From an uncultured Chitinophaga sp. (GTDB lineage: Bacteria; Bacteroidota; Bacteroidia; NS11-12g; UBA9320), in the NCBI GenBank assembly GCA_964355045.1, contig CAYHCM010000004.1:16474-56143 (forward strand): DNA of 39,670 nucleotides. Direction: 5' to 3'. Positions 23,108 through 38,672 of this stretch are shown here, piece by piece. The notes beneath the pieces were generated by a model. It saw only the letters and a program-made list of their open reading frames with translations, did not search any database and was not told where the DNA came from. The first letter of the stretch is position 1, and every line of letters begins with the position of its first letter. The position numbers and the translations under genes were made by a program.

Positions 23108-23285
23108 TGAAGGGGAAATTTGAAATTGGAAAATTGAAATTTTAGTTCTGTCACAAATGTCTATTCTGCCACCAAAACACAAAAATCACAAAATTTTGCT
23201 AAAATTATTATTTTTGCATTTAAGCGTTAGGGCATGGACACCATACCAATTTCAAAACAGATAACTTTTATTCTTAGCATTAAAA

Positions 23286-23439
23286 TCGACAGATTCACAG
23301 ATTAAAAATTTTTTCAGATTAAATCAGATTAAAAAATAGTTCCTATTTTTTGTCGTAAAAGTATTTTTCACAATGACAAATTTTAATTTGTCCTATCTGA
23401 TTTAATCCCTTGTTAATTTTTAATCTGAGAATCTGTGGC
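23286..23439. mobile_element. ~154-bp MITE-like or structured element, copy 1
   Basis: Terminal inverted repeats ACAGATTCACAGATTAAAAATT / AATTTTTAATCTGAGAATCTGTGGC; homologous to 38471-38623. Confidence 0.75.
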
Positions 23440-23545
23440 ATAATTTAGTTATTTGGTAGGTTTTTGGTTTATCAATATGTTGTCTCCCAATGGTGAGATT
23501 AAACTTGGATCTTAATTTTTGTAATTTGGAATTTGGAATTTCCAA

Positions 23546-24106
23546 TCAGACCGTCATAATATCCTTCTCCTTTTCCACCACCAATTCATCTACTTTTTTT
23601 ATAAAACTATCTGTTATTTTTTGAATATCCGCTTCGCCATCTTTGGCCAAATCTTCACTCAGGCCTTCTTTTTGAAGTTTTTTTATTTTTTCGATACTGT
23701 CTTTGCGGATATTTCGAATGGCAATTTTTGAAGTTTCCGCCTCATGTTTTACCTGTTTTACCAATCCAATTCTGCGCTCTTCGGTTAAGGGAGGAACGGC
23801 AATCATTATAATGGTTCCGTCATTTTGTGGATTTAACCCTAAGTTGGCGGCCATTATTGCTTTTTCTATCACCGGTATCATTGTTTTTTCCCATGGCTGA
23901 ACCACCAATGAACGAGCATCGGGCGTATTTACATTGGCTATTTGATTTAGAGGAACAATTGAGCCATAATATTCTACCATTACTCCGTCCAATACCGAAG
24001 GCATGGCTTTTCCGGCGCGTAATCTTGAAAACTCGATGCGGGCATGTTCAATGGATTTCTCCATGTGCTCACGGGTGTAGTTAGCTATTTCTTTAAGGTC
24101 GCTCAT
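23546..24106 (-). CDS. frr: Ribosome recycling factor
   Basis: RLRAGKA, VEYYG, GLNPQNDG, PPLTEERR, IRNIRKD. Confidence 0.97.
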   Translation of the reverse strand: MSDLKEIANYTREHMEKSIEHARIEFSRLRAGKAMPSVLDGVMVEYYGSIVPLNQIANVNTPDARSLVVQPWEKTMIPVIEKAIMAANLGLNPQNDGTIIMIAVPPLTEERRIGLVKQVKHEAETSKIAIRNIRKDSIEKIKKLQKEGLSEDLAKDGEADIQKITDSFIKKVDELVVEKEKDIMTV

Positions 24107-24122
24107 AGTTTAAAATTTTTGA

Positions 24123-24130
24123 CAAAAATA
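24123..24130 (-). promoter_or_regulatory. -7 promoter element (TATTTTTG) for frr
   Basis: TAnnTTTG ending 16 nt before the ATG. Confidence 0.6.
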
Positions 24131-24146
24131 AAGACAAACCTTTCAT

Positions 24147-24300
24147 AAATTACAAAATTCAATTATCAAATAACAAATAAATTACAAAAGTCAATAATCA
24201 AATTGCAAATCGCAGATTCATCATTACCAAAGTTTAAGAATAAAAATATATTAAATGATAAATAAATTCCAATTATCAAATAACAATATTATTACAAAAC
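24147..24300. repeat. Degenerate heptamer tract (AATnnCA-type)
   Basis: AAATTACAAAATTCAATTATCAAATAACAAATAAATT...; CAATTATCAAATAACAA occurs twice. Confidence 0.7.
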
Positions 24301-24322
24301 GAATATTTGGGGTAAATATCAT

Positions 24323-25300
24323 TCAATAATTCAACTGCACACTTATCAAACCCAAAATGAGTACAATAAACAAAAGATTTTTAAACCAGTCTATGCCCTT
24401 GTCGTCCTGAAAATAATTGGTGGCAAATACTGTAATTGGAATAACAGCTAATGCCATATTGTGCCAAAGATTTAATTCCTGAACCAGAACTACCAAAATG
24501 CCTGCCAGCCAAAGCAAGATAAATACACCGGCAAACCGTCGCGATTTATTACTGATTTTAGTACTCTTAAACTGAAAATGAAAAAAGGAAATTACAGAAA
24601 GGGCGGTCAAAATAATAAGAAGAAGATAGAACCTTTCCTGCCAGTGGTTGAAATTAAATCCTAAATTAATGGGTGTGAAGGTAAAAAATGACCAGAATAT
24701 TGTCAATTGTCCAATCAAATAATAAATACTTGCTGTAATAAACATGACCATAAATACCGAAAGCCCCATAATAACAATACTGTTGGTACTGAAAGAGTAA
24801 ATAATAAGTATTCCTATTAAAATAAATGGAAAATAATATATAGCCTCCTTACTTAGCAATAATGAAATACCTATAAGCGTACCAATATCAAGAAATAGCA
24901 TGCCCGGATTTTTTCCAATTTCCTGCAATCTCAGCATCCTGTCAATTATTAAAAGTAAAAAAAAATTAAGAAAAGAGGCTGGATTTAAATAAAACTGTTC
25001 ATTGTAAACCCCTGCCAACATTACATAAATAATAAATGGAAAGAACGATCGTTCCTTTATTACTTTATGATAATGGAGAAAATAAGTAAGAATACCGGCC
25101 TGCAAAAGTATAAAAGCCAATCCCAATACAATATCAAGATTTGGTATATGAGAGACCGTAAGTTTTAAAGAAGAAAATAAAGGTGTATAGGTTATTTGTG
25201 GAAAATCGGGAACAGGTTCAAAAAATATTTTCGACAAAATAAGAATAAACAACCCGATAATAATTCCTCCCAGGCTCTTGTTTCTTATACTCTGTATCAT
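24323..25300 (-). CDS. DUF6427-like polytopic membrane protein
   Basis: Hydrophobic 325-aa ORF with ~9-10 TM segments; family call from resemblance only. Confidence 0.6.
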   Translation of the reverse strand: MIQSIRNKSLGGIIIGLFILILSKIFFEPVPDFPQITYTPLFSSLKLTVSHIPNLDIVLGLAFILLQAGILTYFLHYHKVIKERSFFPFIIYVMLAGVYNEQFYLNPASFLNFFLLLIIDRMLRLQEIGKNPGMLFLDIGTLIGISLLLSKEAIYYFPFILIGILIIYSFSTNSIVIMGLSVFMVMFITASIYYLIGQLTIFWSFFTFTPINLGFNFNHWQERFYLLLIILTALSVISFFHFQFKSTKISNKSRRFAGVFILLWLAGILVVLVQELNLWHNMALAVIPITVFATNYFQDDKGIDWFKNLLFIVLILGLISVQLNY

Positions 25301-26835
25301 GGCTTAAACGAAATTTTTAATAGGGCAAACTTACGGTCTTTTAATACAGGAACAATAATTTTATCAGATGCAATTTGGCTGCCTTCACCCGGAATAATAA
25401 ACGCATTCATTTCATCGCCTTTGGCTATAATTTTTATTTCTTTTTGCCCACCCGTCAAAAAATTGGCCATTACAATATCTCCACCGGTAGCTATAGGATC
25501 GTTATAGATAATATTGATTGAATAAGGAGATGCTGATATAAAAACAGACCCAAGTATCCCGCCATCATTTACCGTATTTTGATTTTTGGTGACATAATTT
25601 TCCCAGGAAAGTTTGCCGATACTATCAAAATTTTGAATTAAAACATTTTCAAAGGTGTAAATATTTTTGCCTTGCGATGAGGGCACACCATTTATTATCA
25701 TTACATCCTGATCTTTTTGGGTATAAGTATTTTCACATATTTTTATATAACCTCCGTCTGTTCGGCAAATTACCTTTAACGGCTGATAAGTAAACGGTAA
25801 AAAACCATTATGAGCCTTGGCTTCGCCGGTCAGTTCTTTTAAAATAGGCTGTGAAAAAGGTTGCTTAATAAGCTTTTCAGTATCGTGTTGCAAATTTTTC
25901 CATTGATATGAAAAATTTCCTTCAAAGGCATTTTCTTCCGAAGAGGTATAAAAACCTGAAACCCCTTTTAAATCTTTAAAAAAATTATAGAAAAGTAGCG
26001 GCAGTTCCAAACTATGGGTAGAATCAAGAACCGGTTTAATAAAATTACTGTCGCCCGATTGTTCAATCAGAGTAAGGTGCAATTGGTTATATTTATTTTT
26101 TTTAGAAATGGCCAACAAGGTATATTGTAGATTTTTGTCAATTACCAAATCGCTTATTGTTTCTAAATTAAGGCTTGATTTTAACATAAATTGTCCCTTT
26201 GTATTCACTTCTAATTTTGAATTCATTGTGGAATATCGGCAAAGAATATTTTTTGAACCATTCAATTCATGGTTGAAAATAAAATAATTTTGATGATCAA
26301 AAGATGGTTTAATAATAAATTCAGGCTCAAAATTCCATTCGGTAACTTTGAATTGTAAAATGGTCGTTTCAGGTATCATGGTTTCAAAACTTCCGTTAAG
26401 ACAAGTTGCTATAATTTTATAGGAATTACTTTTTTTATCAAACACCTGTTTTATGAGCAATAAGCCAGTTTCATTGATATCGCAATAAAGTATCCGTGTG
26501 TTTTTCAATAAATAACTTTTACTGCTTTCAAAGCCCAAATTGTGCCTGTACCGTTCTAAAACTACAAACTTCGAAAGAAATTTATTGCGATGCCGCAAAA
26601 CATAAATGCCCGATTCATCTTCGCCTATTATGGTTGTAAAAATTGAATTTCCCCTGAGTTTTTGAGTATTGCTCCATTCCAGGGTTTGGGCTGATGCCGA
26701 TAGGCCAAGCATAATAAAAAGACCCAAGTTCCAAATTCCAAATCTCAAGTTCCAAGGGCTTCCAGCCAAACCTTTTTGAAATTTGATCCGCCGCAGGCGG
26801 ATTGAAAATCGAAATTTGAAACTTGAAATTTGCAC
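25297..26835 (-). CDS. Hypothetical secreted protein (start uncertain)
   Basis: Long ORF; SASA-Q signal cleavage site; beta-rich mature region with K.Q.TVNDGG motif. Confidence 0.75.
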   Translation of the reverse strand: MQISSFKFRFSIRLRRIKFQKGLAGSPWNLRFGIWNLGLFIMLGLSASAQTLEWSNTQKLRGNSIFTTIIGEDESGIYVLRHRNKFLSKFVVLERYRHNLGFESSKSYLLKNTRILYCDINETGLLLIKQVFDKKSNSYKIIATCLNGSFETMIPETTILQFKVTEWNFEPEFIIKPSFDHQNYFIFNHELNGSKNILCRYSTMNSKLEVNTKGQFMLKSSLNLETISDLVIDKNLQYTLLAISKKNKYNQLHLTLIEQSGDSNFIKPVLDSTHSLELPLLFYNFFKDLKGVSGFYTSSEENAFEGNFSYQWKNLQHDTEKLIKQPFSQPILKELTGEAKAHNGFLPFTYQPLKVICRTDGGYIKICENTYTQKDQDVMIINGVPSSQGKNIYTFENVLIQNFDSIGKLSWENYVTKNQNTVNDGGILGSVFISASPYSINIIYNDPIATGGDIVMANFLTGGQKEIKIIAKGDEMNAFIIPGEGSQIASDKIIVPVLKDRKFALLKISFKP

Positions 26836-26918
26836 TTTTGGAATTTTGAATTTTGAATTTTTACTTTAACCTTTTTACTTTAACCTTTATACTTTTTTTA
26901 CTTTAACCTTTTAACTTT
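26726..26918. repeat. Stacked heptamer tracts plus a GCA-triloop hairpin
   Basis: CAAGTTC/CAAATTC units; ATCCGCC-GCA-GGCGGAT at 26786-26802; GAAATTT, GAATTTT and TTTACTT/TAACCTT tracts. Confidence 0.8.
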
Positions 26919-26923
26919 GGGCC

Positions 26924-28453
26924 TTAAACCTTAATTCTCCGGCTTCGTTTAATAAAAAAATAGGATAAAATACCAAGCCCGATAATGGCAATGGCAAAAC
27001 GGCTTGTTTCCCATTTGGCTATGAGTAAATCAATTGAAATAGCACCTGCCAACACAATGTACAAAATTGGCAAAACCGGATAGAACAAGGTTTTATAAGG
27101 CCGTTCGGCATCCGGGCGTTTGCGTCGTAAAACAATAATTCCTCCAATAGTTACCACATAAAAAAGCAAAGAGGCAAATGTTACATAATCTAATAAAGCA
27201 TTATACGAACCGCTCAGGCAAAGCAAACTTGCCCAAACTCCCTGCATAATAATGGCATTCCCGGGAACGCTTCTTTTATTTAAAGTTCCTGCATCTTTAA
27301 AAAACAATTTATCTTTGGCCATGGCATAATACAATCTCGCTCCGGCCATTATCAGGCCATTGTTGCATCCAAAGGTAGAAACCATAATCATTACTGCCAT
27401 CATAATAACGGCAGCACTGCCAAATATAACCTCGGCTGCTGCTGCGCCAATTCTTCCCTCTTCAGCCCACATGGCGCCTCGTGCAAGGGCTGTTACACCA
27501 TCCGGATTTCCATCTACAGGCAGCAACATAAAATAAGCAACATTGGCCATAAAATATAGCAATACCACAATACCGGTGCCTATCATCAGGCTGTACGGAA
27601 TATTTCGTTGCGGGTTTTTTACTTCACCTGCGGTATAGGTAATATTGTTCCAGGCATCACAACTGAATAAGGAACCAACCATGGCTATCCCAATCACAAT
27701 AACCAACTGCCCGCCTTGTAACGTTTCTTTACTAATTCCTCCGATTTTAGAAAATGTTGTGGTTCGGGCATCCCAAAATTGCGACCAGTTATAAGCAAAA
27801 GCATCGCTGTTAATTCCAACATATATACCGGCGATAATTAAAAAAAGTAAGGATCCTATTTTGGCCACTGTAAAAATGCCCTGAACAATTTTGGCATTTT
27901 TTACACCCATCAAATTATTAACCGATAAAAGACCAATCAATAAAACCCCCACAAACTGTTGCGATGTGATTCCGACGTAATTAAACCAAACTGCCGATGG
28001 ATTGCTGCTTGTAAAATCCCTGATTTGAAAACTTAAATCCCATAAAATATTTGTATTGCTAATCCATGGAAAAATAACCCCCGAAAACTTGGCAAACGCA
28101 ATAGCCACCGCAGCTATAACTCCCGTTTGAACCACAAAAAAAGTAATTAGCCCAAATACAAAACCGGTTCCTTTTCCGTATGCCTCGGTCAAATACACAT
28201 ATTGCCCACCGGCTTTAGGAAACATACCGGCCAATTCGCCATACCCCAAAGCTGCCATCAAAGTAAGCACCCCGGTCAAAAGCCAAACAACCAATATCCA
28301 GCCGGGGGAGCCCAATTGTTGCGACATGGAGGCCGTTACAATAAAAATACCCGACCCTATCATTGAGCCGGCCACCAGCATACTGCTGTCGAACAATCCT
28401 AATTCTTTTTTAAATCCTGTAGTTTCTGCCATAATTTTAGATTGGTCAAACAT
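26924..28453 (-). CDS. APC-family amino acid permease
   Basis: GSMIGSGIF, ELAGMFPKAGGQYVYL, GEVKNPQRNIP, RPDAERPYK. Confidence 0.95.
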   Translation of the reverse strand: MFDQSKIMAETTGFKKELGLFDSSMLVAGSMIGSGIFIVTASMSQQLGSPGWILVVWLLTGVLTLMAALGYGELAGMFPKAGGQYVYLTEAYGKGTGFVFGLITFFVVQTGVIAAVAIAFAKFSGVIFPWISNTNILWDLSFQIRDFTSSNPSAVWFNYVGITSQQFVGVLLIGLLSVNNLMGVKNAKIVQGIFTVAKIGSLLFLIIAGIYVGINSDAFAYNWSQFWDARTTTFSKIGGISKETLQGGQLVIVIGIAMVGSLFSCDAWNNITYTAGEVKNPQRNIPYSLMIGTGIVVLLYFMANVAYFMLLPVDGNPDGVTALARGAMWAEEGRIGAAAAEVIFGSAAVIMMAVMIMVSTFGCNNGLIMAGARLYYAMAKDKLFFKDAGTLNKRSVPGNAIIMQGVWASLLCLSGSYNALLDYVTFASLLFYVVTIGGIIVLRRKRPDAERPYKTLFYPVLPILYIVLAGAISIDLLIAKWETSRFAIAIIGLGILSYFFIKRSRRIKV

Positions 28454-28641
28454 AGTACATTTTGGAACAAAAAATTAATTAGAAATTTTATGATTCGGCA
28501 TCAGGGTATATTTACCAATTGAGGGTATCTTCCCTTTGGTAAAAAAACCTGCGTGACTTCGTGGTCGTGATAATATCTTTATAATTTTTATTGGCTGGTA
28601 TCCACCAAAAGCTACTCAAAATATACATTCCTGATACACCC

Positions 28642-28675
28642 AAAAAAAGGGGCGATTTCAAAATCGCCCCTTTTT
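28642..28675 (-). terminator. Intrinsic terminator (possibly bidirectional) after the Omp28 gene
   Basis: A7-GGGGCGATTT-CA-AAATCGCCCC-T5. Confidence 0.9.
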
Positions 28676-28695
28676 CCTTTGATTTTAATAGTTAC

Positions 28696-29922
28696 TTATT
28701 TAATGGTAACGGGTATTTTTATACCTGTTAATATGTTTGTTTTGTTTTGTGAAACGAAAATTACCACTTCGCAATTTTCTATTACTACATTTCCCCCACC
28801 CGGAGGTATTATTGATCCATTATAATCTGCCGGAACAATATATATAAAGGTCTTCGTATATTTAGAGCCTTTTAATGTTTTTGCCGCTGGAATAATGTCT
28901 CCCCATTGGCTTGTCAACAAATACCTGAGAACATGATTTTGCTCATAATTGTTAGCATCCGGGGTACCACCACTTTGCTTTGAAAAAAGTTTATTCTGAA
29001 GCAAAGCAACATTTACATTGTTCTGAACTAATTCGTCACCGGTATAATACAAATCCACTTTAACTGTTAGTTCTCTTGTTACACTATTAAAGGTTGCTCT
29101 GGAACCAATGTTTACAGGAGATGTCAAGGTAATAACTTTAGCCACTGCCTTTACCCACTGACCTCTATCCATAGTCATATTACTACGCGAAATATCCATT
29201 GCATTTACGCCTAAGCTTAAACAAGTCATTCTGCTTATGGTTCCGGCAGGATATCCGGCAGGGTTTGCCTGATCATGAATGGCTTTGCCACCAGTAGAAG
29301 TAAAATTAGCCCAGCCTGCGGCAGGGGTAGCATAGCCACCTGAGTGGTTGCCAATAATAATGAACCTACCGGGGTTTGCATCTTCAATAGCCTTGGCTCT
29401 TAAGTGTCCATCGGGGCAATAACCGCATCGAACGCCGGTAAAATCTTCTAAAATTGCATTTCTATTCATTGTTATAGTTGGAGCAGTATTTTCGTCAGCT
29501 AATTTTATAGTTGTTATTTTTACTTCATCGCCATATGCTGTGCCTTGCGTATTTGTTGCATATGCCCTGTAGTAATAGGTGGTGTTTTCCTCCAAAATAG
29601 AAATACTGCCTGAAAAAATTCCAAGGCCTTTACCTATGGCAATTTTGTTATCTACAATAGTCGGTTTGGAGATTTTGCTAAAACAAAAACCTCTTTCAAT
29701 TACATCTGATTTACCTGCTAAAGTAACTTCACCATTGGCAGTAGTACTAAGAGCAAAAATTTCGACATCAGCAGAAGTTATTACAGTTGGAAGTCCTGTT
29801 ACTGCAACAGGAACATTCTCTTTGTTTTCATCTTTACAGGCATCAAATAGAATACCTACAGTTGCAAGAACTACAATCAGCAGGCCGAGGGAATGGATTT
29901 TTTTGATTAGATTATTTTTCAT
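28696..29922 (-). CDS. Omp28-family outer-membrane lipoprotein with an N-terminal FN3-like domain
   Basis: Lipobox FDAC; ERGFCFS...TTYYYRAYATN..GTAYG module; LEDFTGVRCGYCPDGH and NHVLR..LT.QWG. Confidence 0.85.
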   Translation of the reverse strand: MKNNLIKKIHSLGLLIVVLATVGILFDACKDENKENVPVAVTGLPTVITSADVEIFALSTTANGEVTLAGKSDVIERGFCFSKISKPTIVDNKIAIGKGLGIFSGSISILEENTTYYYRAYATNTQGTAYGDEVKITTIKLADENTAPTITMNRNAILEDFTGVRCGYCPDGHLRAKAIEDANPGRFIIIGNHSGGYATPAAGWANFTSTGGKAIHDQANPAGYPAGTISRMTCLSLGVNAMDISRSNMTMDRGQWVKAVAKVITLTSPVNIGSRATFNSVTRELTVKVDLYYTGDELVQNNVNVALLQNKLFSKQSGGTPDANNYEQNHVLRYLLTSQWGDIIPAAKTLKGSKYTKTFIYIVPADYNGSIIPPGGGNVVIENCEVVIFVSQNKTNILTGIKIPVTIK

Positions 29923-29941
29923 GGTTTATTTTATTTGAAGG

Positions 29942-29949
29942 CAAATGTA
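29942..29949 (-). promoter_or_regulatory. -7 promoter element (TACATTTG)
   Basis: TAnnTTTGC ending 19 nt before the ATG at 29922. Confidence 0.7.
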
Positions 29950-30257
29950 ATCAGGCTTATCAAATTAGCAATGAAAGTTTTGTCATATTTGAGTTAGAGG
30001 TTTCTATTGACTCATTTCAATGATGGAAACTCATGAAAAGTGCAGAAGCCGCATTGGTTATCTGCCGATTAATAATTTCCCTTGCTCCCTCATATTAATT
30101 CCAACCCACCGGAATATTTTCTTCAGGTAAATGTTTTAAACTAACGGATATTTTTATTATCGGTTGGTACGCCAAAAGATTAGCGAAATATTCCGCATTA
30201 ATCGGTAAATCAGAATTTAATTAGGATTGAATATCGGTAGAAAAAAATTTCTTCACC

Positions 30258-30749
30258 TCACCCATTAATCAGAAATTTTGTAAAATCGGTATTTGGTGGA
30301 TTTTCCAAACCCAACATACGCCCCATAGTTATGAGCTGGCCCCGGTGATACGTGCTGTGATTAACCACATGTTGAATAAAAACATAACACGGCGTAGTTC
30401 CTTTTAGCCAAGGTTTATCAATACTGTAGAGTGCCTCCAAATCCGATTTATTCATCGAACATACAAAGGTTTCCAAATCCTGCGATTGTTTTTGAAAGCC
30501 GTAAAAAAAAGCAATCTCATTTTCCTCAAAGTCCTTTCTGAATTTTTCCAATTCCTTTTTTTCCAAAAACGAAAGCCAAAATCGTTCGGCATCCCAAATA
30601 TGAAGCATAGTAGATTTTAATGTTGAAAAACTGGATGGTATTTTTTGGGTTAATAATTCAGGTTCGGCATGTTGCAGCCATTCTGCAATCTGAATATTAG
30701 CCCGGGTATTGTATTTAGTAAGATCTTGAAATATTTTTACAAAATTCAT
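30258..30749 (-). CDS. DinB family protein
   Basis: HIWDAE..W and HVVNHSTYHRGQ metal-binding His motifs. Confidence 0.92.
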   Translation of the reverse strand: MNFVKIFQDLTKYNTRANIQIAEWLQHAEPELLTQKIPSSFSTLKSTMLHIWDAERFWLSFLEKKELEKFRKDFEENEIAFFYGFQKQSQDLETFVCSMNKSDLEALYSIDKPWLKGTTPCYVFIQHVVNHSTYHRGQLITMGRMLGLENPPNTDFTKFLING

Positions 30750-30765
30750 TTTATGAAATACATTG

Positions 30766-31686
30766 TCAAACTTTAATTATGGTAACCGTATAAGTATAAC
30801 TGGTTTTGGGAGAATTTTTAATTCCGCTTATGGTAACCGTATAGGCAATTTCAGTGGTACTGATTGTATTTATACCCTGTGGTTCCCAAATAATGGTATT
30901 ATCGCCATATCCATTATCGGTAGATGAAACAACGGTTAATGTGATATTGCCGCCCGGCCCATTCATCGTAACGGTTGCATTTGAAAAATCGGCACCCGGA
31001 ATTCCGAATGACCATCTTAAAAAAACAAGAGTATTCGGCATATATCCTGCTGGAGGATATGCAATAAATGCCGGAATTAATGTGTTTCCACCCTTTGTAC
31101 CTATGGTTCCAAGCGACATACTCGCATCAGTAGTACCATAGCTGAATTGTGTTTTTGCTGAATGAAGAATCCATCTTCTGTGGCCTACCGCTTTATTGGA
31201 TGTTCCGTTATCTGACATAAAAGAGGTAATAGCGTTTACCGAATGACTGCCTAAACTCAAATTGCTTGTTTTTGCTCCATCATAACCACTTTGAGTCCAG
31301 CAAGTCCATGTATTTGGCGGAGTGTGGCTTAATTGCGAATTTGCTTTCATCATTAATGCGGCTTGCTGATACATGGGGAATTTGGCGGCATCCAAAGTAG
31401 TATTGTCATTTAAACCAACCAGTTTTCTGAAATAGTTAATTCGTTTTATAACCATATCATGCGTTAATTGAGGAGCTGTTCCCGCATCGCAGCCGGAAGT
31501 ATTGCCCGTCCAACCCGGATTTAAAACTGCCGACCCAAGATAATTATTTTTATAGTCGGCCACAACCGTTTCTCTGTCGCTCAAAATAAGTGGGTCATCA
31601 TCTCCTTTTTTACAACTGTTGATTATTAAGCTGTTTGTTAGAAACAAGACGATTAGAATAAGTTGACCCGGTACTTTATTGTTCAT
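30766..31686 (-). CDS. CAP (SCP-like) domain lipoprotein
   Basis: Lipobox INSC; RINYFRKLVGL, LSH, SNL, GHRRWIL. Confidence 0.88.
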   Translation of the reverse strand: MNNKVPGQLILIVLFLTNSLIINSCKKGDDDPLILSDRETVVADYKNNYLGSAVLNPGWTGNTSGCDAGTAPQLTHDMVIKRINYFRKLVGLNDNTTLDAAKFPMYQQAALMMKANSQLSHTPPNTWTCWTQSGYDGAKTSNLSLGSHSVNAITSFMSDNGTSNKAVGHRRWILHSAKTQFSYGTTDASMSLGTIGTKGGNTLIPAFIAYPPAGYMPNTLVFLRWSFGIPGADFSNATVTMNGPGGNITLTVVSSTDNGYGDNTIIWEPQGINTISTTEIAYTVTISGIKNSPKTSYTYTVTIIKV

Positions 31687-31778
31687 TATAAAAATTGTTT
31701 TTTATTATAAAGCAAAGATGAATTAAATCCATTTGAAAATGGAATATTTTTTATAAAAAAAGTTTTTACGCATTAGTT

Positions 31779-31786
31779 TACCTTTG
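31779..31786 (+). promoter_or_regulatory. -7 promoter element (TACCTTTG)
   Basis: TAnnTTTGC ending 5 nt before the ATG at 31792. Confidence 0.7.
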
Positions 31787-31791
31787 CAACC

Positions 31792-32538
31792 ATGAGCCGC
31801 TTCAAAATTGTATTTATTTCAGTATTAGTATTGATACTCTTGGGCGGAAGTTTTTATATTACAAAAAATCGAACCCAATTCTTGCCATCCTCAGGCACTT
31901 TGATACGGGACAATGAATTACCCATACCGCCTCGCATAAGCTTCAATGTTTCAAAGCAACGTCAAACTTTTATTAAGGATTTTTTTAAAGGCTGCAACCT
32001 GAGCGGCGATAAAAAACAACTTATTGACGCCTGTAATTTTAGCAGTCCTGAGGTACGTGATTTTGCGATACGGGTAGCCGGAAATTCACCCGGAACTTAT
32101 AATCTTGGGCAAGTATGCGATATGTTTGACCAATGTTTTACCAATTGGAAATATGTGAACGACCCCAAAGGCGAAAACTATGTGGCAAAAGCCAGCGAAA
32201 CAATTATCAATAATTTTACGGGCGATTGCGATGATTTTGCTGTAATTATTTGTTCATCCTTAATGGCTATAGGAGGGGAGGCCCGCATTAGTTATGCTTA
32301 TAAAGGAAAAAAGGGACATGCTTTTTCGGAAGTAAATTTGGGAAATACCCCTCAGGAAATAATTACCACCTACCTGAGCAAACGCTATAAACTAAAAATG
32401 GTAAATGGGAAACGGGATAAAAGCGGCAATTGGTGGCTCAATTTGGATTGGTTTGCCGGTTATCCCGGTGGGTTGTATTTTAAATACGCGCATGGGCAGC
32501 GATTTTATGTATTACAAAATTATTGCGAAGCGATTTGA
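31792..32538 (+). CDS. Transglutaminase-like (Cys-His-Asp) protein with an N-terminal membrane anchor
   Basis: WKYVNDP, GDCDDFAV, GHAFSEV, WLNLD. Confidence 0.8.
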   Translation: MSRFKIVFISVLVLILLGGSFYITKNRTQFLPSSGTLIRDNELPIPPRISFNVSKQRQTFIKDFFKGCNLSGDKKQLIDACNFSSPEVRDFAIRVAGNSPGTYNLGQVCDMFDQCFTNWKYVNDPKGENYVAKASETIINNFTGDCDDFAVIICSSLMAIGGEARISYAYKGKKGHAFSEVNLGNTPQEIITTYLSKRYKLKMVNGKRDKSGNWWLNLDWFAGYPGGLYFKYAHGQRFYVLQNYCEAI

Positions 32539-32546
32539 GGGAAGGA

Positions 32547-32720
32547 GCAATAGGCAATGAGCAATAGGCAATAGGAAATAGGGAAATGATAAACAGTAAT
32601 CGGTAATTGGTAAATAAAATGTTCAATAAGCAATTTTCAATGTTCATTTACTTAGCGGAAAACTTATAACATAGAACTATAAGAACTTAGAACATAGAAC
32701 TATAAGAACTTAGAACTTAA
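32547..32720. repeat. Four stacked heptamer tracts including a perfect 23-bp duplication
   Basis: GCAATAG-type, AATnGGT-type, AATnnnC-type and AACnnAG-type tracts; 32668-32690 = 32691-32713. Confidence 0.88.
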
Positions 32721-32724
32721 AAAA

Positions 32725-33117
32725 ATGCACACCCCAAAAGAGCGATATAGAAGCAACCTCAATTTTACGGTAGTAACGTTTTTTGTTTTGGTAAGTTTGG
32801 CTACAGGATTTTATTTGGGAATGGTGGCTGCCAAAGGCCCATTAATAGAAACTTCAAGGAATAAAGATAATTCGGCCATTTATCAAAATTTATGGCAATA
32901 CCGTATTGATTTTTTCAATCTTCTTTTGATATCAGTCGGATATGTTTTTGCGGTATTAATTCTTTTGGTTGCCATTGGAAGAAATAAAATTAATAAAGAA
33001 AAGCGCGAAGAAATAACTGATCTTGAACGCCTCGGCGACCTTTTTAAAAAAGGAGTTCTCACCCGGGAAGAGTTTGATAAAAAGAAAACTGAATTAATGG
33101 ATGATGAGGATCAGTAA
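32725..33117 (+). CDS. SHOCT-domain membrane protein
   Basis: Two TM segments; C-terminal LERLGDLFKKGVLTREEFDKKKTELM. Confidence 0.85.
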   Translation: MHTPKERYRSNLNFTVVTFFVLVSLATGFYLGMVAAKGPLIETSRNKDNSAIYQNLWQYRIDFFNLLLISVGYVFAVLILLVAIGRNKINKEKREEITDLERLGDLFKKGVLTREEFDKKKTELMDDEDQ

Positions 33118-34342
33118 CTATTTGCCCCTTCCACAAAATACATTAGCACCTCACCCTTGTTCTTCATCTCAATTTTTCCACGAGAAGTACAGTTGAATTT
33201 ATCTTTTACCAACTCATACGTGGTTCCGCTAATATTAATTTTTCCTGGTTCGCTGTTGTTTTCTAATCGTGAGGCGATGTTTACCGTATCGCCCCAAATA
33301 TCATAAGCGAATTTTTTGATACCCACAATGCCTGCAACCACCGGGCCGGTATGAATTCCAATTCTAATTTCAAATAATTCTTTTTTATGGTTGATTTTTT
33401 TTGCGAATGATTGTACATAAAATTTTGAATTTCGATTGAAGCGTTTACCACATCTGTTGCATTCGTTTTATTGGGAACAGGCAATCCTCCTGCAGCCATA
33501 TAACTGTCGCCAATTGTTTTAATTTTTTCGATGTTATATTTATCTATTATGTTATCAAAAGCCTTAAAACACTTGTCAATTTCGGCTACCAATTCAGATG
33601 GTGAAAGTTTTTCGGAAATTTGTGTAAAGTTTTTAAAGTCTGTAAACATTACAGTTACCGTATCAAACTGCTTTGCTTCGGCACTTCCGTTAGCTTTAAG
33701 TTCCTCAACAATTTCTTTGGGAAGAATATTGAGCAACAAAGATTCTGATCTTGCCTGAAAAAAATTTTTCTTTCCTACAAAATAATACACCATCAGATAT
33801 ATTAAAGAACCAACCCCGATAATATTAATAACAAAGAACAAACTAATTTCTCCAACTGATAAATTGTTTTGAACCCTGAGCCATGGCTGCAAAATACAGC
33901 CAATAATAACCAGTAAAATATATGCCAGCAGCCAACGCGGTGCGTTTGATTGTTTATCGAAAAGCATGGCGCCAAGTGGTGAAATAAGTCCCCATAATAT
34001 TACTGCGCTTCCACTCACAAAACCACCCAAAGCCAGCATTAGCGCAAAGGGCAGTAGCAAGATGAGAAGCAGTTGGCTGAATCGAAAAATTTGAAATTTA
34101 TGTGTTATTCCAAAATACATGATGCTGATTATTGAAATTACTGAATAGGATAATGGGATTAAACCGACCAGGTTTTCACCGAAAATTATATACATGATAC
34201 CCCATGCTGCTCCGGCAAAACTGAAAGGAATGGCACAGATAACCGGAAGTGATTTCTGTAATCGTAATTCCTCGCTGTCACCTTGCCTGGCACCTATCAT
34301 TGATACCCGGATAAATACTTTTTCGAGATAGTTATTCATCAT
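33111..34342 (-). pseudogene. Membrane class III adenylate/guanylate cyclase split by a 1-nt frameshift (pseudogene, recoding site or sequence error)
   Basis: ~6 TM plus VMFTDFKNFT and IKTIGDSYM in one frame; IRIGIHTGPVVAG...YDIWGDTVNIASR in the -1 frame; junction at ~33380-33402. Confidence 0.85.
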
Positions 34343-34465
34343 TTTTTTTATTACATCAAATTTCCTTTTTTTACATTTATTGCATTCAACTACTGCTTAA
34401 AAGTTTGGTCAATTTTGATATCAAAAATCATATCTAATACCAACCCTTCTTTTAACAAACTTTAG

Positions 34466-34473
34466 CAAATGTA
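34466..34473 (-). promoter_or_regulatory. -7 promoter element (TACATTTG) for the cyclase gene
   Basis: TAnnTTTGC in the intergenic region. Confidence 0.55.
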
Positions 34474-34602
34474 AAAATTACACAGATTGATGCCCCAAAA
34501 GTTTGCCATTTAGACAATAATAATAGCATAATTTTAAATCTATTAATTGACTGACGGTCATCAGCTTTTTGAAAAACATAAGTTTAATTATTCTAAGTTT
34601 AG

Positions 34603-35865
34603 TCAATTCAAATTTATTTTTTTAGCGTAAATCATTTGCTTTGCAGTAATAGCACGAACCAGATAAATCCCATTCGTATATTGAGAAACATCAAGCGTAA
34701 TAAGTTTTGCATTATCAATCAATCCTGAATAAACAATTTCTCCAAGCGGACTGTAAATTTCTATTTTTATTTTCCCTGAAATATTATCAGGCAATTCAAT
34801 AGAAATATTATCACCTGAAGGATTAGGATATATTTTTATAAAATTATCAGGTATTATTTTCTCAATTCCCGTTGAGTTACATCCGGTGCCAATAAACCAA
34901 GGAGTTGCAGTTGAATCATTCGAGAAAAAATCAAGCAACCAGCCACCAACTTTCTTAGCTCCTGCGGCGGATGGATGAGTTCCGTCATTTTGAAAATCGG
35001 CAGGGCAGTTTAGCGCAATTTTGGGATTGGTGGTTTGTGCTGTACTTCCATCCGACCACATATAAATTCCCCAGGCAAGCCATGGCGAGTTTGCAAGAGG
35101 ACCTGAATAGGAAAGCCGGGCATCACCTTTTATCTGGTCTTCAATTACTTTTTTTACAGCCCAGCCTGTGCGATACGAATAAGGTTCAGGATTCAAAGAA
35201 GTGGTAGCATATCGCGCCGAAATTCTGCTCGCCAGATAACATAATTTTATATTCGGGAAACGAACTTTTAATTCACGCATTATGCGTTTTATCTGCACCA
35301 CCAAAGAATCATGATGCACATCAATAGGAGTGGAGCCGGCAACATTGGCTTCCTTAAACCAAATAACCTGAACTTGATTTCCATTTACTCCGGCAGCGGT
35401 AAGTCGCTGGCCAACGGTTCTCCAAAAATTTGCATAATTGGAATGAGTTGGGGTTGAAATAACACTTGCCGTTTGGCCGCCTTGTGCTCCATCCACCAAG
35501 ATGAGTTTCGGGTTTTTGGCGGCAAAAGCATTTGCCAACGGAATAAATTGCTGAGTTTCCTGAGTGCAATTGGACATGCCAATGCTAAGCCAAACAATTT
35601 TACCCTTGGCAACATCCGGTTTTCCATTGGTATCAAGGCATTGAATTTGCGACGCCATTTGCAATCCGGCAGTTTTATGAGCGGAAGGGATAAAATTGGA
35701 ACCATTGGGATATAATCCGCCCATGAGTCCTGTAACGGGAGAAATACCTGTTCCCAAATCGTTGATAGGAGTGAAGCCTGTGGACGGTGCGCTGCAATTA
35801 GGCTGAGAAAATAATTGCACTGCAAAGAATAAAAGGGAGCTTGCAAAAAGTAATTTGGTTTTCAT
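34603..35865 (-). CDS. T9SS type A sorting-domain protein with an SGNH-hydrolase-like domain
   Basis: Signal peptide; SIGMSN, GAQGG, DGTHP; C-terminal domain IYPNPS...GIYLVR...KKI; ATG at 35865. Confidence 0.82.
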   Translation of the reverse strand: MKTKLLFASSLLFFAVQLFSQPNCSAPSTGFTPINDLGTGISPVTGLMGGLYPNGSNFIPSAHKTAGLQMASQIQCLDTNGKPDVAKGKIVWLSIGMSNCTQETQQFIPLANAFAAKNPKLILVDGAQGGQTASVISTPTHSNYANFWRTVGQRLTAAGVNGNQVQVIWFKEANVAGSTPIDVHHDSLVVQIKRIMRELKVRFPNIKLCYLASRISARYATTSLNPEPYSYRTGWAVKKVIEDQIKGDARLSYSGPLANSPWLAWGIYMWSDGSTAQTTNPKIALNCPADFQNDGTHPSAAGAKKVGGWLLDFFSNDSTATPWFIGTGCNSTGIEKIIPDNFIKIYPNPSGDNISIELPDNISGKIKIEIYSPLGEIVYSGLIDNAKLITLDVSQYTNGIYLVRAITAKQMIYAKKINLN

Positions 35866-35949
35866 TTTATAATTGGGATTATTACCTTGGTACAATGTTA
35901 TTAATAAAACGGTATTAATTTTTGAAAACTGTAATTTTTTATAAATAGA

Positions 35950-36048
35950 CAATTAGCAATGGGCAATTAGCAATGGGCAATTGGCAATAAGCAATCGGCT
36001 AATTTTGGGTTTTGGATTTTGGAATTTGGAATTTGTTTTTTGGAATTT
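35950..36048. repeat. Heptamer tracts CAATnnG x7, then TTTGGAA-type
   Basis: CAATTAG CAATGGG CAATTAG CAATGGG CAATTGG CAATAAG CAATCGG, then TTTTGGA/ATTTGGA units. Confidence 0.85.
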
Positions 36049-36055
36049 GTTAAAA

Positions 36056-36544
36056 TCAGTTTTCCTTATTCGGCCAACTATACCATGCTAAATTTCCTTT
36101 TTGGGTGATAATATCTTTCCAGTCATTTATATTAAAATTAAGAAGAGCCATTCCACAAGTTGGTATATCTATAACCGGTGCATTGCCAATATAATTAAAA
36201 AGTTCAGTCATTCCTGGGTTATGGCCAACGATAGCAAGGGAATTAATATTATTATTTGTAGCTACAATTTCATCTAACAAAGCTTCAAAGAAGGCAAGAT
36301 ATAGTTTATCAGAAACTTCAATTTTTTCTATTGCCAAATCCATTAGCTTCGCAATAGTGTTGGCTGTCTGTATAGCTCGTTTAGCCGGGCTTACTTTAAT
36401 CAAGTCAGGCGTGAATCCTGTTTTTTCGAGCCGTTCGCTCATTATTATACATTCATCATATCCACGTTCGCCCAATTCTCTTTCTTTGTCAATATGGCTT
36501 TTCAATTCAGCTTTGGCATGGCGAATTAGTAAAAGATTCTTCAT
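36056..36544 (-). CDS. sixA: Phosphohistidine phosphatase SixA family
   Basis: LIRHAKA, SPAKRAIQTA, VGHNPG, PTC. Confidence 0.88.
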   Translation of the reverse strand: MKNLLLIRHAKAELKSHIDKERELGERGYDECIIMSERLEKTGFTPDLIKVSPAKRAIQTANTIAKLMDLAIEKIEVSDKLYLAFFEALLDEIVATNNNINSLAIVGHNPGMTELFNYIGNAPVIDIPTCGMALLNFNINDWKDIITQKGNLAWYSWPNKEN

Positions 36545-36610
36545 GATAGCTTTGCACGTATTTGAAGAAACAAATTAAACGAATAGATTTCAGGAAATGT
36601 AAATATTATT

Positions 36611-37639
36611 TTAAGGTTTTGAAAACGCCTTATTATTAATAAACGAGGTATCGGTAAGGGTTTTAAGAAAACTAACCAAATCTTTTTTTTCCTGAACACT
36701 TAGTTTTAAACCATAGGCCTTGCCGGCTTTGGTCATTATCGGGTCAATGGTTGGTGAGATTTTTACTCCGGAATTATAATGTTCTATAACTTCAGCCAAA
36801 GTAGCAAATCGTCCGTCGTGCATATATGGAGCCGATAATTCAATATTGCGCAGCGTAGGAACCTTGAATTTTCCTTTATCCAACGGATTTTTTGTTACAT
36901 AATATCGCCCTGAATTATCAGTATTATAACCAGAATCCAAACCAATATTTCTAAACGCATTATCCGTCATTAAAGGGATGGAATGACAATGAAAACAATC
37001 CCCTTTTTCGGTGGTAAATAATATATAGCCATTGAGTTCGGAAGGTGTTAAATCAGATTCTCCCCGCGAAAATTTATCAAATTTAGAGTTGTATGAAACC
37101 AATGCCCTGAAAAATTGTGCTAAACCAAATGCTACATCCTTTTGAGTAATATTGGTAATATTAAAGGCTTTTTTAAATAACCCTTTATACTCATCGTTAT
37201 TATTTAATTTGGTAACATTGGTATTAAAAAATTGGGTAACCTCAAACACCATTTGATCTTCCAAAGTTCCTGATACTTCACCTTTCCATAAAAAATTTGT
37301 GCTCCATGCCAGGTTTGTATGTACCAAAGCATTTGATGCAAAAGTTGTAAATCCGTTGGCTTGATAATGGCATTGTCCGCAAAAGCGGCCGTCGTTAGAT
37401 ATAATGGGGTCGTAATATAATTTTCGTCCAAGTGCTACTCCTTCCTCGGTCATTGGATTTTCAGGGTTAAATGTAATAACCGGGAAATTTTTTGGAACAT
37501 TAATACTATAAGGCGTTGTTTTAAAATTAGTATCAACCGGAGGTTTTTCATTGCAGGCAAAAAAGCCCATAAGAACAAACAAACTTAAAATTAAGCCTGA
37601 AGCAGTTTTTTTATTTAACAGTAAATACATCTTTTCCAT
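36611..37639 (-). CDS. Di-heme cytochrome c peroxidase family lipoprotein (MbnH-like)
   Basis: Two CXXCH motifs (CGQCH, CFHCH); FKVPTLRNI..SAPYMHDGRF; adjacent to an MbnP-family gene. Confidence 0.9.
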   Translation of the reverse strand: MEKMYLLLNKKTASGLILSLFVLMGFFACNEKPPVDTNFKTTPYSINVPKNFPVITFNPENPMTEEGVALGRKLYYDPIISNDGRFCGQCHYQANGFTTFASNALVHTNLAWSTNFLWKGEVSGTLEDQMVFEVTQFFNTNVTKLNNNDEYKGLFKKAFNITNITQKDVAFGLAQFFRALVSYNSKFDKFSRGESDLTPSELNGYILFTTEKGDCFHCHSIPLMTDNAFRNIGLDSGYNTDNSGRYYVTKNPLDKGKFKVPTLRNIELSAPYMHDGRFATLAEVIEHYNSGVKISPTIDPIMTKAGKAYGLKLSVQEKKDLVSFLKTLTDTSFINNKAFSKP

Positions 37640-38330
37640 TTTGAGCTAGTTTTGACATGGCATTTGGTACACCCATTGAATAATTTCCGTCAATTTCAAA
37701 ATCATAGAATGATGGATTTTTATACCATTCATTAATATTCATAGTAAGGGTTTTATTCTGAGTTTCTCCTGTAATACTTATTGGTATATTAATATCCACT
37801 TTTATCAAATTAAAATTATTTCCAAGGTGCATGGCATAGCCATTTTTATTTAAACCCGATTTATCAAGAAAATAACCTTCCATTTTCATAAAATGATAAC
37901 CACCACCCATGGCATCAGGCCAGGCCATATTTATATTTTGGAGTGTTGGTGGTAAATAATTTGTTATATTTTTATTGGGATCAAGGCCTATAAAAAATGA
38001 AATGGAAGTATAGTCTCCCTGCGGAATATTGTCAATAATAAGGGCATTAGTTAATGATTTTCGGGCATTGATATAAAAAACGGAATTGGAAGCATAGGAT
38101 GAGCCGTCCGGTTTTTTAAAAGTAAAACCAGAAAGAAAATATTCCAGATGGTTTATGCCGTATTTGTTTCCCGAAGCATTAGTAAAAATAATAGTATCAA
38201 ACTTTAAGGATGCTGCGTCAACCGAATATTCAACAGCAAATTTTAAAACACCGGTTTTAATTTTTACAGGCTCATCTTTACACGAAAAGAATACTAAAAC
38301 AATAAAACTTACTATTAATAAATTTTTCAA
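37611..38330 (-). CDS. MbnP-family lipoprotein
   Basis: Lipobox FFSC; LEYFLS, IPQGDY...F.IGLD, GYHFMKMEG, MHLG; paired with a di-heme enzyme. Confidence 0.8.
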   Translation of the reverse strand: MKNLLIVSFIVLVFFSCKDEPVKIKTGVLKFAVEYSVDAASLKFDTIIFTNASGNKYGINHLEYFLSGFTFKKPDGSSYASNSVFYINARKSLTNALIIDNIPQGDYTSISFFIGLDPNKNITNYLPPTLQNINMAWPDAMGGGYHFMKMEGYFLDKSGLNKNGYAMHLGNNFNLIKVDINIPISITGETQNKTLTMNINEWYKNPSFYDFEIDGNYSMGVPNAMSKLAQNGKDVFTVK

Positions 38331-38350
38331 ATTCTCCTTTTTTTATCCTT

Positions 38351-38358
38351 CAAAGATA
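38351..38358 (-). promoter_or_regulatory. -7 promoter element (TATCTTTG) for the mbnP/H-like operon
   Basis: TAnnTTTG ending 20 nt before the TTG start. Confidence 0.65.
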
Positions 38359-38380
38359 AATTGGGAGAAAATGAAAATAT

Positions 38381-38394
38381 ATGATTTATATCAT
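38381..38394. promoter_or_regulatory. FNR/Crp-like box ATGAT-TTAT-ATCAT
   Basis: TGAT-N4-ATCA dyad centred ~30 nt upstream of the -7 element. Confidence 0.55.
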
Positions 38395-38470
38395 GTTTTC
38401 GTAAATCAGAATTGTGAATATTCAGAGGATACTAAGTGGTTAGGTTTGGAAATAATACCCAGCTTTAACA

Positions 38471-38623
38471 GCCACAGATTCACAGATTAAAAATTGTTTC
38501 AGATTAAATCAGATTTAAAAATATTTCATATTTTTTTTGTGAAAATATTTTGAAAAAAGATAAATTTTAATTTGTCCTATCTGATTTAATTCCCTGAAAA
38601 TTTTTAATCTGAGAATCTGTGGC
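38471..38623. mobile_element. 153-bp MITE-like or structured element, copy 2
   Basis: 25-bp terminal inverted repeats GCCACAGATTCACAGATTAAAAATT (24/25) and an inner 12-bp inverted repeat. Confidence 0.8.
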
Positions 38624-38672
38624 ATATGGTAGGCAGAAGAAGTACTTAACAGGCAACAGCCCTACAAGGCTA

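Follow-up and report, generated by a model that had tools for sequence, protein, structure and literature searches.

A stretch of 39,670 nt from a freshwater member of the Bacteroidota, an uncultured Chitinophaga sp. (contig CAYHCM010000004.1; hereafter the window, in whose positions all coordinates without a contig or locus name are given) contains two elements of about 153 nt, which are probably members of a dispersed family of non-coding, palindromic and selfish DNA repeats. We also regard it as likely that the repeated core of these elements is a gene-less derivative of a hairpin-armed cassette, and that its conserved fold is a palindrome at the level of the DNA. Such a cassette consists of a small gene of the GxxExxY family (PF13366, TIGR04256) enclosed by the same arms; the product of this gene is a predicted PD-(D/E)XK nuclease. 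The core would be related to the cassette as a miniature inverted-repeat transposable element (MITE) is to an insertion sequence (IS), or as a REPIN (repetitive extragenic palindromic, or REP, doublet forming a hairpin) is to the gene of a REP-associated tyrosine transposase (RAYT). Its propagation would depend on an enzyme acting in trans, and in the genome studied here the core would have multiplied chiefly as the cargo of a second repeat, specific to this lineage and approximately 240 nt long, and not by means of its own arms.

A dispersed family of intergenic palindromes

The two elements had been described in an earlier note, made from the sequence alone, as sharing one orientation and a multi-stem structure, and this description holds in all its parts. 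Copy A occupies positions 23286-23439 (154 nt) and copy B positions 38471-38623 (153 nt), both drawn on the plus strand. They are 89% identical over 151 nt according to BLAST. In a MAFFT alignment of the family, they differ at 19 columns, indels included, of which 6 fall among the 104 paired positions and 13 among the 50 unpaired positions; the changes are thus mostly outside the stems, as had been noticed.

The core is an imperfect palindrome comprising a 25-bp terminal stem with two tandem CACAGATT words, an inner stem of 13-15 bp, two small hairpins, and a 23-nt central spacer. In the predicted fold, the terminal stem measures about 22-25 bp. In copy A, the left terminal arm, consisting of (CACAGATT)2 and AAAAATT, lies at 23286-23310 and pairs with the right terminal arm, AATTTTTAATCTGAGAATCTGTGGC, at 23415-23439. 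The inner stem, noted before as CAGATTAAATCAGAT/ATCTGATTTAAT, is formed by CAGATTAAATCAGAT at 23315-23329 and ATCTGATTTAATC at 23395-23407, with 95.2% of the cells of this helix paired. Between its two sides are found hairpin A (23330-23351, previously placed at 23331-23351, with its counterpart at 38517-38535 in copy B), the central spacer (23352-23374), and hairpin B (23375-23392). The plus strand of copy A folds with a predicted energy of -48.0 kcal/mol (z -8.8) and the minus strand with -54.3 kcal/mol (z -10.6); in neither case was any of 200 shuffled sequences as stable.

With regard to the rest of the genome, BLAST located the family at 33 places in the assembly to which the window belongs (G000; 3.99 Mb in 281 contigs, 93.9% complete; contigs are designated C followed by a number). 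These include 17 copies with both termini, 78-91% identical to copy A and 140-158 nt long when uninterrupted, as well as fragments; further pieces are present at the contig ends of C106, C155, and C235. Each of the 19 copies that were examined lies between genes, and they have no uniform orientation with respect to their neighbours, the upstream gene being on the same strand in 6 cases and on the opposite strand in 10, and the downstream gene in 8 and 8, respectively. The copy on C55 (18436-18635) is interrupted within its inner stem by a 48-nt palindrome, CCCCGTGGG...CCAACGGGG, and in the copy on C144 (5316-5629) the loop of hairpin B holds an insert of approximately 160 nt between repeats of the 8-bp sequence ACAAATTT. 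Internal deletions are observed in three copies, on C57, C31, and C1.

The sites occupied here are empty in related genomes. A 241-nt query found a match in only one of 40 relatives, the genus-mate G002, and this match was limited to the arms. The spacer between uvrC and frr, in which copy A resides, measures 406 nt here vs 45-58 nt in four genus-mates, and the spacer of copy B measures 337 nt vs 105 nt in the genus-mate G010. After insertion, the copies probably have no activity, or serve at most as incidental hairpins at the ends of transcripts arriving from both sides.

Palindrome or RNA gene

One of the two explanations offered in the earlier note was an undescribed structured non-coding RNA, i.e. 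either the gene of a small RNA or a cis-acting RNA element, with selection acting on the multi-stem fold. The very stable predicted fold is in keeping with such a function, as is the conservation of the stems, which are approximately three times less variable than the unpaired parts (minor-allele fraction 0.073 vs 0.207). The pairing statistics, however, do not support it. When the fold of copy A was mapped onto the 13 uninterrupted copies (52 pairs, 500 shuffles), the covariation score was 0.057 vs 0.049 in the shuffles, 50 of which scored as high. Pairs changed on both sides numbered 4 against 2.6 expected (113 of the 500 shuffles as high), and paired cells amounted to 89.4% vs 89.0% after shuffling (72 of 500 as high). 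The covariation is therefore indistinguishable from that of shuffles, which is the outcome that the earlier note had itself named as speaking against a non-coding RNA. A strand bias of wobble pairs is likewise absent, with 18 G.T mismatches and 19 A.C mismatches, and both strands fold equally well.

The surroundings of the copies point in the same direction. In addition to the mixed orientation relative to flanking genes, the promoter-like motif TAnnTTTG, for which the earlier note had allowed that it could be chance, is indeed a chance occurrence: it is found 61 times in the window vs 64 expected, and among 16 copies examined it is present upstream of only the 2 copies of the window. Rfam 15 gave no match on the whole window at gathering scores, and around copy A only chance-level matches (E 3.7-8.1) were obtained when E-values up to 10 were allowed. 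Moreover, relatives lack the element at the corresponding sites, and its copy number is very uneven among genomes.

Isolated compensatory changes do occur. The G-C to T-A double change reported for hairpin A is real and is found in copy B, which has the variant ATATTTCATAT; as this variant recurs in the copy on C55 and in the gene-bearing copy of C155, a single event is the simplest explanation. In hairpin B of the copy on C8, both partners have changed in two pairs. The pairing is therefore likely to be under some constraint. Partial overlaps with the element are found among contigs of metatranscriptome libraries from the same samples, namely at the right arm and the right flank of copy A and at another copy, but these contigs give no strand, transcript ends or level, and they may result from DNA carry-over. 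Four metatranscriptome runs were available as contigs; in two of them short pieces map to the element or next to it, and the other two contained nothing, from which neither transcription nor its absence can be deduced. Given the covariation, strand and Rfam results, we consider an RNA gene or RNA element to be highly improbable. A constraint on the palindrome exists, yet nothing links it to one RNA strand. We infer that the conserved stems result from descent together with a constraint on a DNA palindrome, which would either be recognised by a protein or be maintained as a hairpin or cruciform, and that they do not reflect the function of an RNA.

The gene-bearing cassette and its arms in other genomes

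The earlier note had also suggested looking for gene-containing parents, and these are found both in G000, on C155, and in G002. Three PF13366 genes are present in G000. The one at C155:133-474 is located between pieces matching core positions 1-84 and 22-141, both on the opposite strand. This gene fills the place of the 23-nt central spacer and is antisense to the core as drawn, i.e. to the plus strand at 23352-23374. Contigs C235 and C155 are interrupted in the same arm, at the end of the former and the start of the latter, and match the two sides of a single locus of G002, where a gene matching TIGR04256 (L034:1650-2030) lies between two short (CACAGATT)2 hairpins. This carA-side locus comprises approximately 660 nt in G002 vs a plain spacer of 34-71 nt in G010, G008, G009, and G006. 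The GxxExxY cassette is an insertion, with empty sites in genus-mates. Another GxxExxY gene of G000, on C133, appears intact and is positioned exactly between the two arms of a word-repeat hairpin of the N5-CAC type (GCCACTAAAACAC...).

The other explanation in the earlier note, a structure-dependent mobile element, agrees far better with the data, in that the element is multi-copy and intergenic, has empty sites and nested insertions, and possesses a gene-containing parent. The gene of this parent encodes a PD-(D/E)XK nuclease and not a known IS transposase.

The association of gene and arm extends beyond the genus. The exact arm is present directly upstream of GxxExxY genes in the metagenome-assembled genomes (MAGs) of an Ignavibacteriae and of a Methylococcaceae member (loci L138 and L159). 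The G002 protein is 70% identical to the Ignavibacteriae MAG protein and 67% identical to the Methylococcaceae MAG protein, whereas its best match among 200 sampled Bacteroidota genomes reaches 53%, which argues that gene and arm travel together across phyla. Homologues of the nuclease are found in 102 of 201 sampled Bacteroidota genomes. For 29 GxxExxY loci from other genomes, we looked for inverted word repeats of at least 24 bits on both sides of the open reading frame (ORF), with window pairs shifted by 900 nt as controls. Three loci, none with a repeat, were dropped, two being near contig starts and one having a fused frame of 883 aa. Such repeats bracket the ORF in 16 of the remaining 26 loci (16 of 29 with the dropped loci included) vs 0 of 51 controls. 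The bracketing arms again consist of tandem words, e.g. AGCCACGAATTGCACGAATTACACGAAT, ACCACGAAAACCACGAAAAACACGAA, and TTTCACGCAAAGACGCAAAGTCGCAAAG.

An alignment of 19 nuclease proteins revealed ten invariant residues, namely G25, G27, E30, E40, Y58, D70, E80, K82, Q94, and Y98. The structural model of the protein (predicted local distance difference test score of 95.2) is closest to Cas4 and to PD-(D/E)XK nucleases of the lambda-exonuclease type, with Foldseek E-values of 4e-4 to 2e-3 and modest query-normalised template modelling scores of 0.45-0.62; a sequence search against the PDB chains gave no match. On the basis of these residues and of the model, the GxxExxY protein is predicted to be a PD-(D/E)XK nuclease with a putative active site composed of D70, E80, and K82. 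PF13366 is listed by Steczkiewicz et al. (2012) as a family of unknown function.

The C155 gene contains one in-frame TAA, beyond which the remainder continues in frame. The frames of this gene and of its G002 counterpart both terminate at a similar position, after ...HYKWVLN and before the C-terminal part found in intact homologues. As both same-arm genes end early, they look decayed, and the gene seems to be decaying in the genus. After the cassette arm, at C155:619-700, three extra tandem copies of a 26-nt unit of the terminal arm (TAAATATTAATCTGATTATCTGCGGC and variants) were also observed.

The arm sequence CCACAGATTCNCAGATT was then scanned against one genome per species, and at least 121 loci were found in public genomes. 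Among the matches listed, nearly all are from Bacteroidota, including Flavobacterium, Pedobacter, Chitinophagaceae, Saprospiraceae, Sediminibacterium, and Bacteroidales, with a few from Ignavibacteria and Methylococcales. The majority consist of a short hairpin with the layout GCCACAGATTCACAGATT-loop-AATCTGTGAATCTGTGGC; in some, the CACAGATT word is repeated three or four times in tandem, and in some the palindrome is longer. Of the 201 evenly sampled Bacteroidota genomes, only 7 contain the exact arm, with 13 matches in the present genome, 31 in G101, and 1-2 in the others, and the reversed control gave none. The distribution of the arm is patchy, with bursts. All 6 other arm-positive genomes have a GxxExxY match, but so does about half of the 201 genomes, and related genomes are not independent; the co-occurrence of arm and nuclease across the 201 genomes is therefore weak evidence.

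These data bear on the possibility that the core is a classical MITE, i.e. a deletion derivative of an IS whose DDE-type transposase would act in trans on the 25-bp inverted repeats at the ends of the element (GCCACAGATTCACAGATTAAAAATT). The size of about 150 nt, the terminal inverted repeats, the multiple intergenic copies, the insertion polymorphism and the lack of coding capacity would all suit a MITE. Nevertheless, the 143 ORF fragments that flank 80 of the at least 121 arm loci belong to varied housekeeping families, two of them matching PDDEXK_3, and none belongs to a transposase family. The only gene found between such arms is that of the GxxExxY nuclease, and no clear target-site duplication is observed. 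Most copies also share DNA beyond the terminal repeats, which cut-and-paste at these repeats would leave behind. A classical MITE is therefore a very unlikely description of the core. An integron attC site was also considered for the CAGATAAC...GTTATATG boxes; it was set aside because the fit to RYYYAAC/GTTRRRY is poor by eye and the "cassette" would measure only about 55 nt, and an integrase was not searched for.

Another reading gives the hairpin a role for the host, as a two-way terminator or as a stabiliser of mRNA 3' ends, under selection, with the nuclease gene as an occasional lodger in its loop. Short versions are indeed found between genes in many genomes, beside varied housekeeping genes. 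In the window, copy A is located directly after frr, the gene of the ribosome recycling factor (23546-24106, minus strand; Pfam RRF, E 2.9e-64), the stop codon of which it follows, and upstream of the start of a uvrC-like gene (21311-23182, minus strand; Pfam UvrC_RNaseH_dom, E 9.8e-54, and GIY-YIG). In relatives, the spacer at this site is a simple hairpin. In contrast, a host function is difficult to reconcile with an arm that is so rare and bursty in the 201 genomes, with an element that is missing from the matching sites of genus-mates, and with the location of some copies between divergently transcribed genes, where a terminator has no role. We consider this reading improbable as an account of the family, although it is compatible with that of a selfish repeat, since such a repeat may acquire a use for its host. 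The neighbours of copy B are an MbnP-like gene (37611-38330, minus strand) and a gene encoding an FG-GAP repeat protein with a Por_Secre_tail sorting domain (38673-39590, minus strand), the latter marking the window as Bacteroidota-like.

At the site of copy A, inverted segments rich in GGAAATTT enclose the whole insertion (23100-23150 and 23505-23545). The frr-uvrC spacer of the genus-mates G008 and G007 consists of a single simple GGAAATTT-rich hairpin, and the insertions therefore appear to occupy the middle of an older hairpin.

The outer repeat and comparison with known systems

Most cores are flanked by further conserved DNA. On the left, a TAG tag is followed by a 7-bp hairpin, by CAATTTCAAAACAGATAACT, and by a linker of approximately 19 nt; on the right, the flank is AGTTATATGGTAG. 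The proximal-left motif is present in 14 of the 17 cores, the right motif in 9 (no more than 30 nt downstream), and the whole left hairpin module in 8. As 14 of 17 cores share outer flanks, the amplified unit appears to be a composite of approximately 240 nt, with the (CACAGATT)2 core as its cargo. Copy A has the full outer repeat, with a left module at 23227-23266 (TTAG, the hairpin GGCATGG/CCATACC, then CAATTTCAAAACAGATAACT) and the right motif AGTTATTTGGTAG at 23447-23459, both on the plus strand. Copy B is accompanied by degenerate remnants only, of the left module (ACTAAGTGGTTAGG, 38431-38444, plus strand) and of the right motif (ATATGGTAG, 38624-38632, plus strand). The left hairpin varies in sequence with its pairing kept, as in GGCATGG/CCATACC, GGTATTG/CAATACC, and GGCGATG/CATCACC. 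Its tag is NTAG, and GTAG is found in 4 of 14 copies.

The outer unit also exists without the core. On C131 (1-360, minus strand), three identical 94-nt units are arranged head to tail, each carrying a 40-nt hairpin as cargo, with a fourth, diverged unit at the contig start. On C192, the outer unit is associated with another palindromic cargo, and on C106 it is doubled. The outer module was found in none of 40 relatives. When metagenomes were scanned with the outer-left 17-mer, more than 117 loci matched, but the surrounding module was absent from all 80 loci fetched; the 17-mer matches are therefore due to chance and are uninformative on the occurrence of the outer repeat.

A second abundant hairpin family, the arms of which are tandem N5-CAC words (GCCACTAAAACACGAAGGCACAAAATTTCAC...), was observed at more than 40 places in G000, e.g. 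at C2:61780-61920, C79:16230-16360, C5:45640-45765, and C133:3376-3858. The pattern GCCAC-N5-CAC-N5-CAC has 37 matches in G000 vs 0 in the reversed-sequence control. A half arm of this type, distinct from the arms of the core, is present in the window just outside the composite of copy A (23168-23199, plus strand). The composite on C46 is located within the loop of a GCCACTAAAACAC-type hairpin. Repeats in this genome are nested in the centres of other palindromes. In addition, C64 (~19543), C96 (~14569), and C107 (~42) have in common a stretch of no less than 43 nt, which closes with ...GTGTGGTCGAGTTATATAGAAG and after which the three sequences differ; it may be the end of another repeat or of an IS.

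The outer module raises the question of a REP/REPIN-like mechanism, in which a Y1 transposase of the HUH type would move single-stranded DNA by recognising the TAG-tagged 7-bp hairpin as an end, with the core as a passenger. That the composite, and not the core alone, is the amplified unit favours this mechanism, as do the preserved pairing of the outer-left hairpin, the head-to-tail arrays and other cargoes of the outer unit, and the presence of two Y1 genes (IS200-like, PF01797) in the genome, at C72:17174-17518 and C30:4891-5235. However, neither of these genes is flanked by the outer-left hairpin, and a profile of the outer-left module gave no match on C72 or C30. Both Y1 genes are flanked by other repeats, that of C30 by the inverted tandem octamers (ACCTTATT)2. 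Their YI.NQ..HH motif resembles subclass 1.2, which is described by Quentin et al. (2018, PMC6006769) as generally lacking the terminal secondary structure of IS200. The low frequency of the GTAG tag, the undefined exact ends, and the absence of the module from the 40 relatives and the 80 metagenome loci also stand against it. We therefore think it rather unlikely that the composite is moved by a hairpin-recognising single-strand transposase. The (ACCTTATT)2 word pair was also observed upstream of the copies on C113, C79, C106, and C131.

The whole system nevertheless shares several features with REP/REPIN-RAYT systems as they are presented by Di Nocera et al. (2013, PMC3733652) and by Quentin et al. 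(2018, PMC6006769). These features are many short, intergenic hairpin palindromes, a low-copy gene between inverted copies of the repeat, gene-less copies that far outnumber the gene-bearing ones, and a patchy, burst-like distribution; a small hairpin with a TAG tag is present in the outer module as well. In contrast, the gene found here encodes a PD-(D/E)XK nuclease of approximately 124 aa and not a HUH tyrosine transposase, the arms are tandem 8-nt words and not a single tagged palindrome, and the arms of the core lack a 5' tag. The two Y1 genes are flanked by neither the core nor the outer repeat. REP/REPIN-RAYT systems have reportedly also been treated by Nunvar in 2010 and by Bertels and Rainey in 2011.

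Bacterial MITEs such as the Correia elements of Neisseria, the ERIC/IRU elements of enterobacteria, and the RUP elements of pneumococci are imperfect palindromes of 100-160 nt with terminal inverted repeats of approximately 25 bp. They are intergenic, present in multiple copies, and often co-transcribed with neighbouring genes. Unlike these, the elements described here have no transposase parent that we could find, no demonstrable target-site duplication, and conserved DNA beyond the terminal repeats. Since there is neither a repeat-flanked Y1 gene nor a transposase parent, the system lacks the defining feature of both REPIN-RAYT and MITE-IS pairs. The intervening sequences of 23S rRNA genes in Leptospira and Coxiella carry a small ORF in the loop of a long inverted-repeat stem. 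The present elements differ from them in being located outside rRNA genes, in having an ORF of another family, and in having gene-less copies dispersed between protein genes. A literature search found no printed description of this system, within a coverage that mostly excluded subscription journals, and no paper on the 16-mers of the arms.

Several findings weigh against a cassette-derived selfish repeat as the full explanation. The only same-arm gene of G000 has an in-frame TAA and that of G002 is short, so the cognate active nuclease is probably missing at present. Within 200 nt, 10 of the 26 GxxExxY loci have no bracketing repeat, and G101, with its 31 arm matches, has only a distant GxxExxY homologue (E 1.2e-12), which indicates that arms and a close nuclease do not always occur together. 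In G000, the multiplied unit was not delimited by the (CACAGATT)2 arms, as the shared outer flanks show. A clear target-site duplication was not found, the insertion junctions not being placeable because the flanks next to the arms are conserved as the outer repeat and the spacers of relatives, whose flanking genes are only about 75-85% identical, do not align. The copy counts are lower bounds, as the assembly is fragmented and contigs end inside copies. To these can be added the compensatory changes, the likely constraint on pairing and the metatranscriptome contigs discussed above.

As to what drives the spread, the candidate D-E-K residues, the predicted fold, and the co-travel of gene and arm across phyla lead us to propose, tentatively, that the nuclease recognises the arms. 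It would bind either the tandem 8-nt words or the extruded hairpin, and would drive the copying of the cassette and of gene-less hairpins into new intergenic sites, including across phyla. If the centres of palindromes were preferred landing sites, this would explain the repeats nested inside repeats. By analogy, GxxExxY nucleases and hairpins with word-repeat arms could together form a widespread, unpublished class of selfish elements, similar to REPIN-RAYT systems but with a different enzyme fold; we hold this generalisation to be a possible but doubtful one.

For this genome, an apparently new structured RNA becomes a placed member of a repeat system. Long hairpins of this kind break assemblies, several contigs ending within copies in the present case, and they can mislead the discovery of RNA motifs in Bacteroidota. 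For PF13366, a large orphan protein family, a genomic context is gained. If it is true that the nuclease acts on the arms, the system would represent a second, independent invention of the REP/RAYT lifestyle, and the family would be a source of sequence-programmable recognition of hairpins or words.

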